Shown here: one piece after another, positions 1 to 6,510 of the stretch | Layout: each line of letters opens with the position of its first letter | Numbering within the stretch: the first letter of the stretch is position 1 | Assembly (NCBI GenBank): GCA_021399345.1 | Contig: JAAFKI010000090.1 | Location: 1-10,502, forward strand | Reading direction: 5' to 3' | DNA from: Candidatus Heimdallarchaeota archaeon | GTDB lineage: Archaea > Asgardarchaeota > Heimdallarchaeia > Heimdallarchaeales > Heimdallarchaeaceae | Length of the DNA stretch: 10,502 bases | The notes under the pieces: generated by a model | Database searches by the model: none | What the model was told of the DNA's origin: nothing | The model's input: the letters and a program-made list of their open reading frames with translations, nothing else | Program-made: the position numbers and the translations under genes

Positions 1-17
1 GAGCAATTATGACAACT

Positions 18-49
18 AAAAAACCCCCAAAGAATACAAGAACCCCGAG
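18..49. repeat. Direct repeat A, copy 1 (AAAAAACCCCCAAAGAATACAAGAACCCCGAG)
   Basis: 29/32 ungapped identity to 1819-1850, including an exact 18-mer GAATACAAGAACCCCGAG (32-49 = 1833-1850). On the minus strand it ends in a T-tract. Confidence 0.9.
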
Positions 50-85
50 AGAATGATACTACAGAAATAGAGAATAAAGGGTTGG

Positions 86-128
86 GAGGTCTTGGAGAAC
101 TTTGAACGTAGGAGGTGATCTATCCGCA
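86..128 (-). repeat. Direct repeat B, copy 1: fragment resembling the 16S rRNA 3' end plus a downstream hairpin
   Basis: 93-128 vs 3430-3465 is 31/36 identical. 110-128 (AGGAGGTGATCTATCCGCA) matches the reverse complement of the conserved 16S 3' end (AGGAGGTGATCCAGCCGCA) at 17/19. Confidence 0.85.
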
Positions 129-150
129 AATTAGGTGTCACACTTTTCAT

Positions 151-165
151 ACGAACTTTTATTAG
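151..165 (+). promoter_or_regulatory. Putative archaeal BRE/TATA promoter of the subtilase gene
   Basis: ACGAAC-TTTTATTAG resembles BRE + TATA, about 55-60 nt upstream of the ATG at 218. An SD-like AGGAG lies at 203-207. Confidence 0.45.
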
Positions 166-217
166 GCGAGTAATCATTAATTTAGTAATACTCATTCAAG
201 GAAGGAGTTGACAAAAA

Positions 218-1765
218 ATGAATAAAAAACTTATTACTATTCCAGCTCTAGTTTTTCTTCTATTTTTACTAGTAGTAGGGAATATTTCCACCGTAAAAGG
301 TGTAGAATGGCCTGAAATAGAAGAACCAGATCCTCAAGTTATATCTTGGGGTTTAGATGTAATAAATGCAGAAAAAGTATGGGGAGGAAATGAAGATGCA
401 ACAATGATATGTGCAAATCCAATTGCTACAGGAGCAAGGATTAATGTTGCAATCGTAGATAACGACTTTGATTATATGCATAATGATTTGATTGATCGTT
501 TTGCAAATGATCCTAATTTTGAAGAATCTCTTGCTAATCATGCCCATGGTACTGAATGTGCAGGAGTTCTTGCTGCAAGTGATAATGGTAAGGGGATAGT
601 AGGTGTAGCTCCAGAAGTGAATTTATACAGTATCCATGGTAGACCCGATTATTCTCTAACAGATGCTTTGCAACAAATAATAGAAATGAATACTGATGAT
701 GATTCAACTAACGATATATCTGTGATTTCGATGAGTTTAACTTTAGGTCCAAGTGATGACTTAATCAATAAAATTGCTATTTTGTATGAACAAGGAGTTT
801 CCATTGTACTTCCTTCAGGTAATGCTATAGATATCACAGCTGAAACTTATGGACACGGTGTTCGTTGGGGTTTTATCTCAGATAAAGTAATCATTGTAGG
901 AGCTATAGCTGAACCAGATGACCCCAATGATCCAGCTGACTATGAACTAGCTACTTGGCCTACTTACTGGGGAACTGGAGGAAGTAATTATGATGTAGAT
1001 CCTGGAGATCCTAGCGTTTGTCTTGTTGCTCCTGGAGATACAGTTCTAACAACTTATATTAGAACATCGGGAAGCCAAACTGATTCTACATATATATATG
1101 TATCAGGAACTTCTATTGCTACGCCTATGGTTGCAGGTGTAGTAGCTTTAATGCAAGAAGTCAATCCTGTTCTCAGAAAGGATTGTGATGCTGTAAAGCA
1201 AATACTTGAAGAAACAGCTTTTACATTAACGGCAGATGAAGACGCAATAGCAAAGTTTGGTGCTGGTTTGGTTCAAGCTGATGCTGCTGTTAGTCTAGCT
1301 CAAGAGTACCTTGATTATGATAGAGATGGAGATACCTTGAAAGACATAACGGAATACATTCATGGTCTAGACTGGCATGATAATTCTGATGGATTAGCTG
1401 ATCAAGATGTAGATGGATTGATTACTAGAGATGAAATAATGATTCACAATACTTTCTGGTATGATTACGATAGCGATGATGATGGTTGGAGTGATGGAGA
1501 CGAATGTGCTATATATGGAACAAATGGTCGTAGTAGTGAAGATACACCTATGCTAGACCATGATGGAGACGGCATAATAACTAAAACAGAAGTAGATGGC
1601 TTTTATATGGATGAATTTGGGTGGATATATACAGAACCCTATAATTCTGATACGGATGGTGATTCTTGGTCAGATGGCTATGAAATAGCGCCTTTAGGAT
1701 ACTTTGAAACACCATCTGATCCAACAGATCCGTTTAGTGTTCCACGTCCTTTTACGAGATGGTAA
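218..1765 (+). CDS. Secreted subtilisin-like serine peptidase (family S8) with C-terminal Ca-binding thrombospondin type-3-like (DxDxDG) repeats
   Basis: Signal peptide aa 1-28. Catalytic D81 (VAIVDND), H110 (HGTECAG), oxyanion N202 (SGN) and S299 (SGTSIATPMVAG). C-terminal repeats DRDGDTL, DVDGL, DSDDDGWSDGDE, DHDGDGI, DTDGDSWSDGYE. Confidence 0.93.
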   Translation: MNKKLITIPALVFLLFLLVVGNISTVKGVEWPEIEEPDPQVISWGLDVINAEKVWGGNEDATMICANPIATGARINVAIVDNDFDYMHNDLIDRFANDPNFEESLANHAHGTECAGVLAASDNGKGIVGVAPEVNLYSIHGRPDYSLTDALQQIIEMNTDDDSTNDISVISMSLTLGPSDDLINKIAILYEQGVSIVLPSGNAIDITAETYGHGVRWGFISDKVIIVGAIAEPDDPNDPADYELATWPTYWGTGGSNYDVDPGDPSVCLVAPGDTVLTTYIRTSGSQTDSTYIYVSGTSIATPMVAGVVALMQEVNPVLRKDCDAVKQILEETAFTLTADEDAIAKFGAGLVQADAAVSLAQEYLDYDRDGDTLKDITEYIHGLDWHDNSDGLADQDVDGLITRDEIMIHNTFWYDYDSDDDGWSDGDECAIYGTNGRSSEDTPMLDHDGDGIITKTEVDGFYMDEFGWIYTEPYNSDTDGDSWSDGYEIAPLGYFETPSDPTDPFSVPRPFTRW

Positions 1766-1770
1766 CAAGT

Positions 1771-1801
1771 AATTTTTTTTTCTTATTTTTTCTTATTCTT
1801 T
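1771..1801 (+). terminator. T-tract (archaeal-type) terminator of the subtilase gene
   Basis: T9 run at 1773-1781 followed by CTTATTTTTTCTTATTCTTT, starting a few nt after the stop codon. Confidence 0.55.
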
Positions 1802-1818
1802 GTCTAATTGCATTATTA

Positions 1819-1850
1819 AAAAAACCTCTAACGAATACAAGAACCCCGAG
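1819..1850. repeat. Direct repeat A, copy 2 (AAAAAACCTCTAACGAATACAAGAACCCCGAG)
   Basis: 29/32 identity to 18-49 in the same orientation. It lies between the convergent ends of the two protease genes. Confidence 0.9.
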
Positions 1851-1900
1851 CGTAAGAGAAGATTCTTTTAAAAATTGTAAACAAGTTTTATAAAATATAT

Positions 1901-1912
1901 AAAAAAAAGAAA
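1901..1912 (-). terminator. T-tract terminator of the caspase-like gene
   Basis: A8 run at 1901-1908 on + (T8 on -), about 10 nt past the stop codon at 1917. Confidence 0.45.
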
Positions 1913-1916
1913 CGAA

Positions 1917-3329
1917 CTATAGATAGAAAGAATTCTCTAAATCTCCATCTAAAATCATCCCTCTCTCAGGAGGTTTAAAGAAGTTTCGTAAAAGATCTCC
2001 AATTTCATGTGTATCCTCAAATGCTTCTTCCATAGAGTGGTCATAACCGTAATAACCCTCATATGTACCATAGTAATAATTCACTTCTTCAAGCAATAAA
2101 AGTTTAAGGAACCATACTGTGAATAACCCATCAGATAACACATAATTGCCTGAAGAAATATACAATGTGTTACTATCTATATAATCATCAACATAATATT
2201 CTAACCAATAACCAGAGAAACATGTTCCAAAATAGACGAAAGTTTGACACTGTAAAGGTAGAGTATTCTTAAGTTCTAGATCATTGATGGATTTATCATC
2301 TGCACACACAATATAACCACTTGGATCTATGCCATGGGAACCAAATATAACTGAGAGCATATCATTCTCAACTAAATTACTCCCTAATTCGTCCAATTTT
2401 ATCATTAAATTAATAAATGTAGCAGGGCCTTGATAATCACCTTCTGCATATGCAAGATATTCTTCTTGAAGGTAATTTTCATAATTTCCATAAAAATATA
2501 TTTCATCATAACGCATTGAGTATTTGAAGAAACTGTACCATTCATTGGCTCTATCAATATTTGATGGTAAATCGTCCGCATCCTCGAAGTATGCGATTAC
2601 TGCTATGACAGCAACACTTTTTCCAGCATTCAAATCAGTAAAGTCTACTACATTGTTTCCTCCACTTAGACCTGTTGAAGTATGTTTGATTTCTTTTATT
2701 CCACTCTTGTGAATCGCGATATCGTAATCTCTCGGTACTGCATTAGTAACAGCTTCGAATTCATAATAACCAGTGGAATCAGTAAATACTTTCTGTAAAA
2801 CCTCTCCTGTCCATGTTCTTATCAAATAGACTCTAGCATTTTCTATTGGTTCATTTGGGTTGCTGTTATCATATACATGACCTTTGAAAGTTGTCTGAAT
2901 TGAACCAAAAAACTCTAATTCAAAGTTTACCTCAAAACTACTACCCCATCTCGAAGATCCTGGCACTGGTTTGCTTTTCCAATAAAAATTAGCTCTAGAT
3001 GCTCTTATGCTGTATAGCTTGAATCTACTTGTTTCATAAGTTATACTGAATTCTCCATCAGGTGAAGTAGAATGTGTATGCCCTACGACTGAACCGTCTT
3101 CTAATAATTCAATCAATGCATCTGTTAAGGGCTCACTGGTTGGAGGATCTCCATACATCCCCATTACTGTTCCAAAATATGTCATTTCAGTTGTAGCAAA
3201 ACTGTTTTGTTGTATAAATGTAAAACTAATAAGAATACTGAAGATTATTAAAATGATTTTTACAATGTTTTTTCTTTGTTTAATTAATCCCAATTTATTT
3301 CCACTTCCTCTTCGATATTTATGATTCAT
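1917..3329 (-). CDS. Secreted or membrane-anchored clan CD (caspase/legumain/gingipain-fold) cysteine peptidase with two carboxypeptidase-regulatory-like (Ig-like) domains
   Basis: Hydrophobic N-terminal segment aa 22-39. Two G-x-V...EP-x-x-x-A-x-[IV]...T...DG/TG beta-sandwich modules (aa ~49-140 and ~146-233). The catalytic domain has strand-His LSVIFGSHG (H332) and strand-Cys FVYFGTCFSG (C370). Confidence 0.8.
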   Translation of the reverse strand: MNHKYRRGSGNKLGLIKQRKNIVKIILIIFSILISFTFIQQNSFATTEMTYFGTVMGMYGDPPTSEPLTDALIELLEDGSVVGHTHSTSPDGEFSITYETSRFKLYSIRASRANFYWKSKPVPGSSRWGSSFEVNFELEFFGSIQTTFKGHVYDNSNPNEPIENARVYLIRTWTGEVLQKVFTDSTGYYEFEAVTNAVPRDYDIAIHKSGIKEIKHTSTGLSGGNNVVDFTDLNAGKSVAVIAVIAYFEDADDLPSNIDRANEWYSFFKYSMRYDEIYFYGNYENYLQEEYLAYAEGDYQGPATFINLMIKLDELGSNLVENDMLSVIFGSHGIDPSGYIVCADDKSINDLELKNTLPLQCQTFVYFGTCFSGYWLEYYVDDYIDSNTLYISSGNYVLSDGLFTVWFLKLLLLEEVNYYYGTYEGYYGYDHSMEEAFEDTHEIGDLLRNFFKPPERGMILDGDLENSFYL

Positions 3330-3421
3330 TCTAGAAGAATCGAATATATATTTAATTTGAGATTTATAAGTAATTGCTATAAATTGAACAAATAAATTTT
3401 GTAAAAGTTGTTAACTTCAGT

Positions 3422-3466
3422 GAGATCTCTGGAGACCTCCGAACGTAGAAGGTGATCCATCCGCAG
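3422..3466 (-). repeat. Direct repeat B, copy 2: fragment resembling the 16S rRNA 3' end plus a downstream hairpin
   Basis: Minus strand reads CTGCGGATGGATCACCTTCT-ACGTTC-GGAGGTCTCCAGAGATCTC. 3447-3466 matches the conserved 16S 3' terminus at 18/20. It begins 2 nt past the stop codon of the HEPN gene. Confidence 0.85.
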
Positions 3467-3468
3467 TC

Positions 3469-4386
3469 TTATAAATTTTTTACTCTCTCCTCAACTTCTT
3501 CTCTTGAAAATAGACTGTTTAACTCAGATTGTGCTTTAATGAAATCTTTCATTATGAAATCATTATCTATTATTTCTGGATTTTTCTCAAGCAAAACAGA
3601 ATCTAATTTTATTATGATCCTTTGGGAAACCTCCAATAGCTGATTAATTGTCTCCAAACCAATTTCAATCTTCATTCCTAATTTTACATCTTGTCTATTG
3701 GTTTTTCTAAGAAATATCTGATTTACTTTCCCATCTCCATGAGTATAGATATCTCTAATAAGCTTCAACTCTGACAATTCATCAATTAGCTTATTTTCTA
3801 TATTGTGTTTCAAACCAATTTTCTTTTGTATATAGGTTTTCAACGTACTTCTATACCCTTCATATAATTGATTGTGGATACTTTTTGATATCATCTCTTC
3901 AATTATATCTTTTTTTTCCTTTGTTTCAAGTTCTTTTGCACTAAATGTTATTTTTCCCAATATCCCTGGGTTTTTCTTAAGTAGAAAAGTAATGAAAGAA
4001 ATGATATAATTGTCAGATTCAGTAAAAATAAACTGTATAGCATATCTATAAATAAACTCTAGATATTTTTCAAAACTAAATTCCTCAAAAATAAAATCTA
4101 AAGCCTTCTTATGGCTTTTTTTCATAGTTATTCTGACTTTCCCCTCTTCAAGCTCTTCACTATAGGGGATAGTTTTTCTATCAAGATCTACCTTTTTCAA
4201 TGTTTTTCCAAAATTTGAAAGTTCTTCTTTCAGTTCTTCTGTATAGGGAAATATTTTTTTCATACGTGTGATAGAAAATTGCATATATCCTATAAACGTG
4301 AAAATCCTTTGAATATATTTCGAGTAGAATTTGCTTCCTAATTCTGATGCATTTTTACTCATTTTCTTTTCCCCTTCATTTTTCAT
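3469..4386 (-). CDS. Putative HEPN-domain ribonuclease (hypothetical protein); alternative start at Met9 (4362)
   Basis: Lys/Glu-rich protein that appears helical. It carries an RxxxxH motif ELKLIRDIYTHGDGKVN (R211/H216) and an upstream acidic helix FTESDNYI, as in HEPN RNases. It overlaps the upstream gene by ATGA (4383-4386). Confidence 0.65.
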   Translation of the reverse strand: MKNEGEKKMSKNASELGSKFYSKYIQRIFTFIGYMQFSITRMKKIFPYTEELKEELSNFGKTLKKVDLDRKTIPYSEELEEGKVRITMKKSHKKALDFIFEEFSFEKYLEFIYRYAIQFIFTESDNYIISFITFLLKKNPGILGKITFSAKELETKEKKDIIEEMISKSIHNQLYEGYRSTLKTYIQKKIGLKHNIENKLIDELSELKLIRDIYTHGDGKVNQIFLRKTNRQDVKLGMKIEIGLETINQLLEVSQRIIIKLDSVLLEKNPEIIDNDFIMKDFIKAQSELNSLFSREEVEERVKNL

Positions 4387-5192
4387 CTAAATTTTCCCCT
4401 TTCTTTGGTTTGTTTAATAGTTTTCCTTGCAGTTTGTACAATTAATCCCTCATAAGTCATCCAAGTTAATGCGCATAAAAACGATAAAGCCAAAAGAATA
4501 ATTAAAGCAATCACTGGATTTTGTAACTTGTTTGTATAATTCGATATTAGTATTATATTGAAGAAACCCATGATTAGAATCAAATTAAGAATCCTTAAAC
4601 CCCATAAAATAATATAGTATCTTCTTTTCTTTTTCTTTGACATTTGTTTTAAAGTCTCATGTTCATAATGGTGAATTGCACTTTTTTTGTCTGGTATTAA
4701 TCCTCTTCTAACTTCTTTGTCTATTTCAAGTTGAAAAGACAGAAGATTTTCAGTAATGTATGTGGATCCATCAAGACAACCTGAGAGCTCAAAAACATAT
4801 TCTCCATCTGGAATGTACTTTTTAGCTCTAAAGCTTATGAGTTTTGTAACACTAGAACGTGGCTCAACTCCTATTCCTACAAATTCTGTGATTGTTTCTT
4901 CACTATCAATTGAAAAACCTTCACTGAATTTCGAAACTTGAAATTCAAATTTTTTATCATTTGATAACGAAATTAGGGTTCCTGTAAGATAATTAACAGT
5001 ATGTGAGTAGCTTCCAGAATTTGTTAATGCTAGAGGAAAAGCTATACAAAAATCCTCTTCATCTCTCCACAGAAAATGCATATTTGGTTCTCCAAAGAGA
5101 ATCTTCCCTTTGCGTAAGTATTGATAATAGAAACCTAATACAGATATAAATAATGCTGCAATAGCTATGAACAATGCTTCATCCATTTCCAT
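4383..5192 (-). CDS. Membrane protein: N-terminal TM helix, soluble Ig-like (LEA_2/WHy-like) domain, two C-terminal TM helices
   Basis: TM ALFIAIAALFISVLGFYYQY. Beta-rich middle with IAFPLALTNSGS. A basic stretch KKKKRR precedes the TMs YYIILWGLRILNLILIMGFFNIILI and PVIALIILLALSFLCALTWM. Confidence 0.7.
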   Translation of the reverse strand: MEMDEALFIAIAALFISVLGFYYQYLRKGKILFGEPNMHFLWRDEEDFCIAFPLALTNSGSYSHTVNYLTGTLISLSNDKKFEFQVSKFSEGFSIDSEETITEFVGIGVEPRSSVTKLISFRAKKYIPDGEYVFELSGCLDGSTYITENLLSFQLEIDKEVRRGLIPDKKSAIHHYEHETLKQMSKKKKRRYYIILWGLRILNLILIMGFFNIILISNYTNKLQNPVIALIILLALSFLCALTWMTYEGLIVQTARKTIKQTKERGKFR

Positions 5193-5240
5193 CCCATCTT
5201 TCTCTATTGTAAATTACCAAATCCTAGATATTAAATCTTT

Positions 5241-6398
5241 TTAATTTTTATCAATTATTTGTTGATAATTTCTTTTTGTTTCATAGTAAACAATCATCAG
5301 AATTATTGTGAAAAATGGGAATACCTCAAAAATTAAAGAACTCGTTCTCTCACTCTCTTTTCCTTCTAGAACAACTTGTTCTTCAATAGGATACAAATCA
5401 AAATTATTTGCTTTTCCTTCAATATAGTATATAGAATCTCCTTTTAAATCATCCCAATAGTTACCCTTTTTTCCACCCTCATAGTACCAATAATTCTCTC
5501 TTCCTTCGTCTCTTCCTTGTGAACGTCCATCTAAACTGTTATTCAGAAAATCATTTAGATATATTCTATTTCTCTCACACTCATCATCTAAAAACAACCC
5601 CCTAACTTTATTATCTTTGAAGAGATTAAAATTCAACAAACACCCAATTGTACTATCTAGCTTCATCCCTCTTAACCCATTTCCTTCTATAGTGTTGTTC
5701 ATGATTGCTGATCCACTTACTTCCTCTAAATATGCCCCCTCTTCACCATTTCTTGAAATGGTATTATTGTATAATATTGCATCAGTTCCTCCCATGTATA
5801 TACCTTTTTCCCCATTTTCAAAACATTTATTCTCATAAATTATCCCATTCTCAATAACAGCTATACTCATCCCTGAGTCTCCGTTAGCATAACAAGTATT
5901 ATTCTTCAATACCAAATTATAAATAAGAACTAATACCATACCCGATGATTCATGATTGGAACAGATATTGTCTTCAATCAGCACATCCTTGGCAACGTAG
6001 ATGACTATTCCATCACCATTTTCCTCTTCACTACTCACACAGATGTTATTCTCAATTCTAGCTCCACCATCAACCATATTTTCAATCAAAATACTTGTGT
6101 GTGAAACATCAATGTAACAGTTCCTGATAAGAAACTGCTTGGTAGTTGAAGTGATATAGATTCCAAAAGAAGTGCTAGATGTAATATTATAGTTCTCAAT
6201 CAAGTAAGGATCTTCATATGTACCTGAACCTGGAAAAACTAGGAAATCTTCATCTGAACTGATTTCGATAGGATTATGAGAAATGAGCAGAGTATTCTCA
6301 CTATTTGGATTAACTGTAGTCTCTCCGTCAACTGTGAATGTTAAAGAAATTGAAACACAAAGTAGAATAATTGTGTTTCTTTTCCATGAAGAAGTCAT
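5241..6398 (-). CDS. Right-handed parallel beta-helix (NosD/pectin-lyase-like) surface protein with signal peptide and C-terminal TM anchor
   Basis: N-terminal cap HNPIEISSDEDF..FPGSGTYEDPYLIENYNI. Repeated ~22-aa IxNNxxxxNxxxGI units. C-terminal IYLNDFLNN...GNYWDD...DLYP, then TM LIFEVFPFFTIILMIVYY. Confidence 0.88.
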   Translation of the reverse strand: MTSSWKRNTIILLCVSISLTFTVDGETTVNPNSENTLLISHNPIEISSDEDFLVFPGSGTYEDPYLIENYNITSSTSFGIYITSTTKQFLIRNCYIDVSHTSILIENMVDGGARIENNICVSSEEENGDGIVIYVAKDVLIEDNICSNHESSGMVLVLIYNLVLKNNTCYANGDSGMSIAVIENGIIYENKCFENGEKGIYMGGTDAILYNNTISRNGEEGAYLEEVSGSAIMNNTIEGNGLRGMKLDSTIGCLLNFNLFKDNKVRGLFLDDECERNRIYLNDFLNNSLDGRSQGRDEGRENYWYYEGGKKGNYWDDLKGDSIYYIEGKANNFDLYPIEEQVVLEGKESERTSSLIFEVFPFFTIILMIVYYETKRNYQQIIDKN

Positions 6399-6510
6399 TA
6401 GGGTTCTCTAGAACTACTAAATCATTCTATAAAAACCAACAAGAAATCAACTCACATACAAAGTTTTCTCGCGTTTTTAAACGATTTTAATTATTATAAC
6501 TCAGAAGAAA
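6399..6510. promoter_or_regulatory. Divergent promoter region between the beta-helix gene and the giant receptor-like gene
   Basis: 112-nt AT-rich intergenic region. TATA-like TTTTTAAA at 6474-6481, within the small palindrome CGTTT-TT-AAACG, about 30 nt upstream of GTG 6511. Confidence 0.4.

Follow-up and report, generated by a model that had tools for sequence, protein, structure and literature searches.

Two pairs of short repeats, A and B, lie around single peptidase genes in the window analysed here, a stretch of 10,502 nt that is the entire contig of a Heimdall-group Asgard MAG. The question raised by this locus is whether the repeats are alternating sites of an integron-like gene-capture system, as proposed in the preliminary description, or have another origin.

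Repeats A and B

Both repeat pairs were confirmed at the positions originally given for them, and the gene order was correct. The A copies (18–56 and 1819–1857) are 85% identical over 39 nt and have an exact 18-mer core in common, with a blastn E-value of 5e-4 against the entire 3.27-Mb assembly (G000). The B copies (104–128 and 3441–3465) are 92% identical in blastn against the same assembly. A profile built on 20 copies from relatives matched the window contig in exactly three pieces, at 6–128 (E 4e-28), 1819–1875 (E 7e-6) and 3420–3467 (E 7e-6). Its sole match elsewhere in the assembly was the complementary 16S leader on contig C194, and neither sequence nor profile searches of G000 found A or B copies beyond those in the window. 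The second A copy had been located correctly at 1819–1850 but extends to about position 1875. The 36-nt interval between the first A and B copies had been correctly measured but is not a mere spacer, since in an alignment of copies it is conserved and belongs to the unit.

Outside the window, at least 20 copies run through from A to B without interruption, and the two repeats are opposite ends of one ~120-nt unit rather than two alternating sites. When the unit is read on the minus strand, B corresponds to the last 19–20 nt of 16S rRNA followed by a hairpin, and the 36-nt segment together with A corresponds to the 3' strand of the pre-16S processing stem, with an oligo-T terminator at its end. 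In relatives, B runs on into genuine 16S sequence and the 16S gene detected with RF01959 abuts the arrays; the trailer directly follows the 16S 3' end in G009, G001 and G013. The copy at 6–128 is 94% identical to the working trailer of G009, which is itself continuous with true 16S sequence. The A-plus-spacer part pairs with the 16S leader both in G001, where the leader–trailer helix spans ~60 bp with a cofold energy of -118 kcal/mol, and in the window's own genome, where the leader and the unit at 6–128 form a computed duplex of -79.6 kcal/mol as compared with -39.8 ± 4.9 kcal/mol for shuffled sequences (z about -8). By sequence comparison, then, the unit is a displaced copy of the last 19–20 nt of the 16S rRNA gene plus its ~100-nt 3' trailer. 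Rfam and tRNA scans of the window returned nothing.

The A core is strongly conserved across nearly all copies. This conservation and the computed pairing with the 16S leader would suit functional RNA elements under selection, for example 3'-UTR modules that contain the anti-Shine-Dalgarno sequence or rRNA-leader decoys. Both B copies in the window, however, carry substitutions at invariant 16S positions as well as broken hairpin pairs, including a broken hairpin in the sense strand of the first copy, and these changes show decay. Many copies are truncated and their lengths differ, and no co-oriented gene precedes the unit at 6–128 within the window. We therefore regard selection for an RNA function as highly improbable.

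Content of the window

The displaced 16S tails are referred to here as fossils. Fossil 2 (6–128, minus strand) is intact and is matched by the 16S-end pattern at 110–128. In the direction of the minus strand it comprises the last 19 nt of 16S rRNA with one mismatch (128–110), a linker with a decayed hairpin (109–86), the 3' strand of the processing stem (85–57 and 56–24), and a T6 terminator (23–18) followed by ~12 more conserved nt. Fossil 1, also on the minus strand, is in two halves. The proximal half (3420–3467; profile model positions 83–130) contains the last 20 nt of 16S with one mismatch plus the hairpin; the 16S-end pattern matches at 3447–3465, the boundary is at -20, and the tail begins 1–2 nt past the stop codon of a 305-aa ORF. 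The distal half (1819–1875; model positions 18–68) contains the end of the processing-stem strand and the T-run.

Alignment of the two halves to the G009 trailer places an insertion-deletion of ~1.55 kb (1876–3419, minus strand) within fossil 1, at which ~25 nt of the tail would be absent; no target-site duplication is present. The inserted DNA contains a 90-nt upstream region, an ORF at 1917–3329 (minus strand) and a T8 terminator right past the stop codon (eight A at 1901–1908), so that the gene does have its own upstream region and T-tract, as previously described. The insertion-deletion that broke fossil 1 would have brought in a complete gene. What had been called a filled site is best taken as a single unit into which that gene was inserted, and not as separate A and B sites. 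The encoded protein of 470 aa has a signal/TM segment, a CarboxypepD_reg domain (Pfam) and a C13-like peptidase domain. Its assignment as caspase-like is a lead, based on CarboxypepD_reg, Peptidase_C13 look-alikes in a protein atlas, and His-Gly and Cys motifs.

The cargo between fossils 1 and 2 is a secreted subtilase (218–1765, plus strand; Peptidase_S8, Pfam E 2e-33), oriented opposite to the 16S gene. No ortholog was found in the arrays of relatives, and the best matches are 35–40% identical paralogs located elsewhere. The block closest to the 16S gene (3469–10502) contains three minus-strand ORFs, encoding the 305-aa protein, a 269-aa membrane protein and a NosD/beta-helix protein, and a giant plus-strand ORF (6511–10500). 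The 305-aa protein does have a single RDIYTH motif, but its description as part of a HEPN operon finds no HMM match in Pfam, NCBIfam, PADLOC or PHROGs. Among the window's cargo, PADLOC and PHROGs matched only a subtilase model.

The 5' part of the 16S gene of this genome lies on contig C194 and the remainder is unassembled. The giant ORF leaves the window toward the unassembled 16S gene, and the homologous ORF ends beside the working 16S trailer in G013, G017, G022 and G023. Synteny accordingly puts the window's accessory genes in a stack immediately past the 16S gene of this organism; the order rests on synteny because the working 16S tail of G000 is unassembled.

Arrays in related genomes

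Of 24 genomes of the genus, 17 contain the unit. A genome has up to seven copies, spaced 1–6 kb apart, and every copy lies on a 16S-adjacent contig. The genes between copies encode a TPR paralog family, S9 peptidase, alpha/beta hydrolase, HEAT, STAND NTPase, DUF917, beta-lactamase-like and LRR proteins. Copies are 91% identical within a genome as compared with 68% between genomes. The comparison with related genomes suggested earlier therefore yielded varied genes between copies, clearly not an absence of further copies and polymorphism. The idea of a gene-capture array holds in that relatives carry different genes between copies, although the two alternating integron-like sites do not. The cargo was also correctly characterised as secreted proteases and defence-type genes, with peptidases in the window and defence-type genes in relatives. 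In metagenomes, the exact 33-mer of the first unit had no match, whereas a looser unit core identified 16 further array contigs, none from the window's species; no same-species strain variants were found in these searches, and no viral contig matched the unit.

The same layout was seen in three further genera, one locus matching the published HeimM2 element. In a closed 3.08-Mb genome, a 6.6-kb LRR cassette lies between the copies of a 134-nt repeat (95.5% identical); next come a LAGLIDADG gene and a tRNA with TCT anticodon. HEPN and AbiV genes are enclosed by a 99-nt repeat in another genus, and in a genus belonging to a different family a 152-nt repeat encloses the genes for an SBBP protein and a C13 peptidase.

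In four genera the longest fossils begin 20–23 nt before the 16S 3' end (-20 to -23); others begin at -17, -14, -9 or later, giving a full span of -2 to -23. The shorter fossils form a nested series trimmed from the 16S side, while the terminator end is constant. Given this spread of starts, a single precise insertion site is a possibility and no more. The G001 fossil contains an extra ~70-nt domain that the working tail of G001 lacks, and this fossil and the G023 working tail are 96% identical; the reverse pattern occurs in G004, G013 and G023. Judged from these alignments, a fossil and the working tail of its genome may represent alleles of different structure, although a later indel is also possible.

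TPR paralogs, whose upstream module and 3' end are both conserved, form tandem series in which tails separate the genes, and TPR genes elsewhere in the genomes keep only the last ~40 nt of the tail (the T-run part) directly past the stop codon. Both observations would fit a purely local origin, in which an old segmental duplication was followed by unequal crossing-over and the tail was retained as a transcription terminator for downstream genes. Against this, in different genera genes unrelated to one another abut tails at a nearly identical 16S position, the working tail and the fossil can differ as structural alleles, and the peptidase gene in the window has its own T8 terminator ahead of the distal half of fossil 1. 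We consider a purely local origin improbable. As a separate matter, the arrays of TPR genes may have grown by unequal crossing-over after one fossil existed.

Search for mobility enzymes

The search for an adjacent recombinase called for in the preliminary description found none in or near the arrays. Tyrosine integrase (PF00589) has no match in the entire G000, G004 and G013 assemblies and matches only unrelated contigs in G001 and G010; none lies in or near any array. No recombinase was found in Pfam scans of array ORFs, one of which covered 25 of its 43 matched families, and no nuclease or recombinase domain was recognisable in the window's cargo genes with Pfam, NCBIfam, PADLOC or PHROGs. 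Although these genomes are rich in TnpB genes, five TnpB queries from G000 had no match in 48 array loci (449 kb). The tail of the giant ORF, a candidate PD-(D/E)xK domain, gave a weak AF2 model (pLDDT 63) with no Foldseek match at E <= 0.001. A 530-aa family that fills many arrays was considered as a nuclease or recombinase and rejected, as it is predicted to be an all-alpha TPR solenoid (pLDDT 89) with generic TPR matches only.

Integron-like capture, with A and B as alternating sites served by a dedicated recombinase, accounts for the variable, cassette-like array layout and for the interruption of one window unit by exactly one gene. Its defining features are contradicted: A and B are contiguous elsewhere and 16S-derived, no intI is present, single-stranded DNA folding of the first unit gave no attC-like structure better than shuffled sequences (z +0.31 and +1.30), and the cargo genes lie in both orientations under promoters of their own. 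It can be taken as refuted on these features.

Tandem accretion could also arise by Campbell-type integration, in which circular cassettes carrying one 16S tail enter the working tail by plain homologous recombination or by means of a site-specific recombinase that went unrecognised, with excision between tails possible as in tandem tRNA-end islands. Cassettes bordered by direct repeats of 99–152 nt from the 3' end of a stable RNA, the appearance of the arrays, and similar copies within a genome alongside diverse cargo all favour such integration. The integrase and TnpB searches speak against it, and the variable truncation from the 16S side suits break processing better than conservative recombination. 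We consider it unlikely, though less so than the alternatives above.

Proposed mechanism

The best explanation, and in our judgement probably the correct one, is serial insertion at the tip of the 16S gene, with a fresh tail each time displacing the old one. DNA would have been inserted repeatedly ~21 nt before the 16S 3' end, each insert bringing a fresh copy of the tail, and the rRNA therefore remains intact. The previous tail would be shoved downstream along with older cargo and decay there. The window would then hold two fossils, one intact (6–128) and one later broken by the insertion-deletion that carried the C13-like peptidase gene. More tentatively, a homing-type nuclease may start the process by cutting both DNA strands near -21, and homologous recombination would complete it, with the highly conserved 16S gene as one arm and an old tail as the other, and perhaps with no dedicated integrase taking part.

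A homing nuclease is plausible as the responsible enzyme. A free-standing LAGLIDADG gene, 56% identical between two genera, lies directly after a tail copy in both (G016 and G045, the only genomes with this arrangement). Against this role, the gene is present in only 3–4 of 83 genomes of the class, and the window's cargo has no recognisable nuclease or recombinase domain; LAGLIDADG domains are frequent but mostly within inteins, with one free-standing array copy in the window's genus. It is possible, although we rather doubt it, that Heimdall-group and other Asgard archaea have a general integrase-free, nuclease-started mode of gene capture, in which a break ~21 nt from the single 16S end admits any DNA with a fresh tail, the near-universal 16S gene serves as an interspecies homology arm, and rRNA mini-introns at -13 and -28 are resistance alleles.

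If serial insertion is correct, the end of the most conserved cellular gene would be a landing pad for accessory genes, among them proteases, HEPN/AbiV-type defence genes, STAND NTPases and surface proteins, in the archaea most closely related to eukaryotes, and would be a prokaryotic counterpart to the yeast WHO mechanism. Reading these loci as arrays also accounts for the breakage of 16S-bearing contigs in Heimdall-group MAGs, and short 16S 3'-end matches in such genomes should be treated with caution, as they can be fossils and not genes.

Comparison with known systems

The unit agrees with an archaeal pre-16S 3' trailer in both its contiguity with the 16S end and its complementarity to the 5' leader. 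Its arrays share with integrons, including those in Archaea, a row of small swappable gene units with a recurring site between them. They differ in having no IntI, attC fold or common promoter and in their mixed gene orientation; in place of promoterless co-oriented cassettes, the window has a subtilase on the opposite strand and a peptidase gene with its own upstream region and terminator. Islands at tRNA and tmRNA 3' ends resemble the arrays in having a direct repeat that is the 3' end of a stable RNA, an intact RNA gene and tandem accretion. Such islands carry a tyrosine integrase next to att, which none of the Asgard arrays does, and the Asgard units are often single genes.

The mobile elements HeimM2 and HeimV2 of Ca. 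Heimdallarchaeum were reported directly behind the only 16S rRNA gene, HeimM2 carrying an LRR protein and an rRNA-intron-type homing endonuclease (Wu et al. 2022, Nat Microbiol, PMC8813620). The closed 3.08-Mb relative has the same gene content as HeimM2 between the 16S gene and the tRNA with TCT anticodon. The passages of that report considered here describe no direct repeats, flanking copies of the 16S end and trailer, or multi-copy arrays; the present analysis adds to them the flanking 134-nt repeat, its start near -21 and arrays of up to seven fossils. The window's cargo is different from that of HeimM2 and HeimV2.

The WHO elements of Torulaspora and Lachancea yeasts lie behind FBA1, in clusters interspersed with FBA1 3'-end fragments that start near one position. 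Each insertion swaps the gene end, moving the old end and older cargo downstream, and each unit encodes its own endonuclease, whose cleavage was shown experimentally (Coughlan et al. 2020, eLife, PMC7282813). The Asgard clusters likewise lie directly behind a conserved host gene with 3'-end fragments between units. Their units are mostly ordinary cargo, however, the host gene is an rRNA gene, and a nuclease is only postulated, the window's units having no nuclease domain in place of one endonuclease each. As to a common fragment start, the longest Asgard fossils cluster at -20 to -23 in four genera, with others at -17, -14, -9 or later. As to the swap of host-end alleles, the working tail and the fossil differ by the ~70-nt domain in four genomes, where a later indel is also possible. 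On the best reading, serial insertion with a fresh tail each time, comparable to that of WHO elements or of islands at tRNA gene ends, makes the end of the 16S gene a gene-collecting site for which no integrase was found.

Repeats A and B belong to a single unit

The source assembly comprises 3.27 Mb in 199 contigs at 33% GC, and the window is one whole contig (C17, 10,502 nt). Sequence comparison places the repeat A pair at 18–56 and 1819–1857, with 85% identity and an exact 18-mer core, and the repeat B pair at about 86–128 and 3422–3466, and no further copies of A or B were found when the rest of the assembly was searched. A search profile derived from the copies of relatives matched the window at 6–128 (E 4e-28) and at 1819–1875 and 3420–3467 (E about 7e-6 each), and gave one more match in the source assembly, a complementary one on contig C194. 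Both repeats are therefore where the preliminary description had placed them, and the ORF map of the window bears out its gene order.

Minus-strand B has the 3′ terminus of 16S rRNA at its end; the final 19 nt of that rRNA, used as a search pattern, match 110–128 and 3447–3465 with one mismatch each. In the closest relative (G009), a unit 94% identical to window positions 7–128 leads uninterrupted into true 16S sequence, at the very point where the 16S gene detected with RF01959 ends. Because the G009 unit continues into the end of the 16S gene, B is the last 19–20 nt of that gene followed by a hairpin, the stem of which co-varies between species in the alignment of copies. What remains of the 3′ trailer, up to the T-run at its end, corresponds to the 36-nt "spacer" together with A; in the pre-16S processing stem it supplies the 3′ strand. 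In another relative (G001), leader and trailer folded together give a helix of some 60 bp, and the source genome's leader on C194 folds with the first unit of the window at −79.6 kcal/mol (shuffles, −39.8 ± 4.9). It follows that A and B, earlier taken for two separate sites, are parts of one unit, the 16S 3′ end plus trailer.

Layout of the window and its probable place behind the 16S gene

At one end of C194 (1–560) lie the 16S leader and the opening ~330 nt of the gene itself, a 16S start that the RF01959 search of the source genome did not report. In four relatives (G013, G017, G022 and G023), the working 16S trailer is faced by a convergent homolog of the giant ORF. From this synteny we infer, since the working tail of the source genome is unassembled, that the 16S gene lies on the minus strand, about 1 kb past the window's right end. 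In the 16S direction, leftward through the window, the working tail lies beyond the contig and is followed by the antisense giant ORF, which runs past the contig end and the tail of which gave a structure model of pLDDT 63 without a fold match, and then by genes for a NosD/β-helix protein, a 269-aa membrane protein and a 305-aa protein. Next come the proximal half of a displaced tail copy, fossil 1 (3467–3420, starting 20 nt before the 16S 3′ end), a 1.54-kb segment that holds a C13-like gene together with 90 nt of upstream region and its own T8 terminator, and the distal half (1875–1819). The antisense subtilase gene separates fossil 1 from the intact fossil 2 (128–6), after which the contig ends.

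The loss of ~25 nt of tail between the halves of fossil 1, and the lack of any target-site duplication at the split, point to an insertion-deletion rather than a transposition. Invariant 16S positions have changed in both fossils, and fossil 2 also has a broken hairpin (sense strand); both are decaying copies. That the copies serve a selected RNA function is unlikely, given that they have decayed and been truncated. The window is thus a small case, with two fossils, and is distinctive in that a later insertion split one of them.

The subtilase has a Peptidase_S8 domain and a signal peptide, and its C-terminal third (1320–1765) holds many Asp-x-Asp-x-Asp-Gly-type repeats resembling calcium-binding thrombospondin type-3 motifs. 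The product of the C13-like gene, 470 aa long, combines a CarboxypepD_reg domain with a C-terminal region resembling Peptidase_C13; an atlas score of 0.93 and His-Gly and Cys motifs make this likeness a lead, and the former label "caspase-like" can be kept tentatively at best. The same applies to "HEPN", the sole sign of which is an RDIYTH motif in the 305-aa protein. No orthologs of the subtilase or the C13-like gene were found in the arrays of relatives. A second trio of NosD-like protein, C13-like peptidase and giant membrane protein, 32–49% identical, occurs elsewhere in the source assembly (C113:1337–8960) with no 16S tail copy, and for this reason the peptidase may belong functionally to a giant-protein module.

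The unit in relatives

The unit is present in 17 of the 24 other genomes of the genus, in up to seven copies per genome, all on contigs bearing or adjoining the 16S gene, 1–6 kb apart and oriented like it. Copies are 91% identical within a genome versus 68% between genomes; same-species variants of the unit were looked for and none was found. The cargo between copies includes a fast-duplicating family of ~530 aa, predicted to be a TPR solenoid (pLDDT 89) and matching only generic TPR proteins, together with S9 peptidase, α/β hydrolase, HEAT-repeat, STAND NTPase, DUF917, β-lactamase-like, LRR and Schlafen/AlbA proteins and one free-standing LAGLIDADG gene. The ~530-aa family, which has no Pfam match, fills many arrays (loci L009:456–5995, L017:478–4063 and L015:3969–9652 in relatives; also C194:31612–33183), and its last ~80 residues and a ~200-nt upstream module are far better conserved than the remainder. 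All genomes checked have a 560-aa member upstream of the 16S gene; copies also occur away from the 16S gene, some retaining only the terminator part of the tail.

The layout extends past the genus. Another genus is represented by a closed genome of 3.08 Mb, where the last 21 nt of 16S and the trailer make up a repeat of 134 nt (95.5% identical). Copies of it enclose 6.6 kb that encode an LRR protein, and after the repeat come a LAGLIDADG gene and a tRNA with a TCT anticodon. In a second genus, HEPN and AbiV-HEPN genes stand between copies of a 99-nt repeat; in a genus from a different family the repeat is 152 nt long and encloses genes for an SBBP protein and for one that joins CarboxypepD_reg to Peptidase_C13. 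The latter protein has the same architecture as the product of the window's C13-like gene and aligns with it only at the catalytic-Cys motif.

Proposed insertion mechanism

The genes stacked behind the 16S gene vary, and in many genomes copies of the 16S tail stand between them. Each insertion would have brought a fresh tail, pushing the old one away. Four observations argue for this. Unrelated genes adjoin tail copies at a near-identical 16S position, the longest fossils starting at −20 to −23 (nt before the 16S 3′ end) in four genera. Shorter fossils form a nested series trimmed from the 16S side with a constant terminator end, which is what processing of a broken end should produce. The working tail and fossil of one genome are sometimes distinct structural alleles: in G001 the fossil contains an extra ~70-nt domain that the working tail lacks, and it matches the working tail of G023 at 96% identity (146/152), whereas G004, G013 and G023 show the reverse pattern. 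Such mismatch is not predicted by simple duplication in situ. Finally, no tyrosine integrase was found in or near any array (three assemblies lack one outright), no TnpB-like gene across 449 kb of array loci, and no attC-like fold of the unit in a folding test. The preliminary model of two alternating integron-like sites was rejected, the tests that define such a system having come out against it.

The extra domain (L010:14275–14330, L014:560–640, L013:4590–4650, L009:60–130 and L015:7955–8030) sits between the stem strand and the hairpin, and its presence varies between working tail and fossils of the same genome. Pure tandem duplication may account for the growth of the TPR arrays, but leaves the unrelated cargo and the allele mismatches unexplained. 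Campbell-type integration of circles bearing a tail is possible; it shares serial insertion with the fresh-tail reading and differs only in the mode of insertion.

For the enzyme behind fresh-tail insertion there is a hint of a homing nuclease, because a LAGLIDADG gene lies behind tail copies and mini-insertions lie on either side of the presumed insertion site. The gene directly follows a tail copy in two genera (56% identical) and is sporadic, in 3–4 of 83 genomes; this free-standing family of ~205 aa (L088:11498–12118 and L019:275–889) is missing from most relatives. Working 16S genes of several species carry mini-insertions of ~30 nt ("mini-introns") at −13 (L015:10075–10130, L016:150–213, L022:450–510 and L013:4480–4546) and/or −28 (L009:1–45, L010:14375–14440 and L014:470–535), sites that flank the fossil start position. 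The −13 type can fold into a 4-bp helix between two 3-nt bulges.

Comparison with known elements

We found no description of 16S-tail fossil arrays in the literature. The closest is that of HeimM2 and HeimV2 behind the 16S gene of Ca. Heimdallarchaeum; the gene content given for HeimM2 in passages of Wu et al. (PMC8813620) is that of the 16S locus in the closed 3.08-Mb genome, and in the passages on the two elements neither fossil arrays nor 16S-tail repeats at the flanks are mentioned. In mechanism, the nearest counterpart is the WHO elements of yeasts, clusters located behind FBA1 (PMC7282813).
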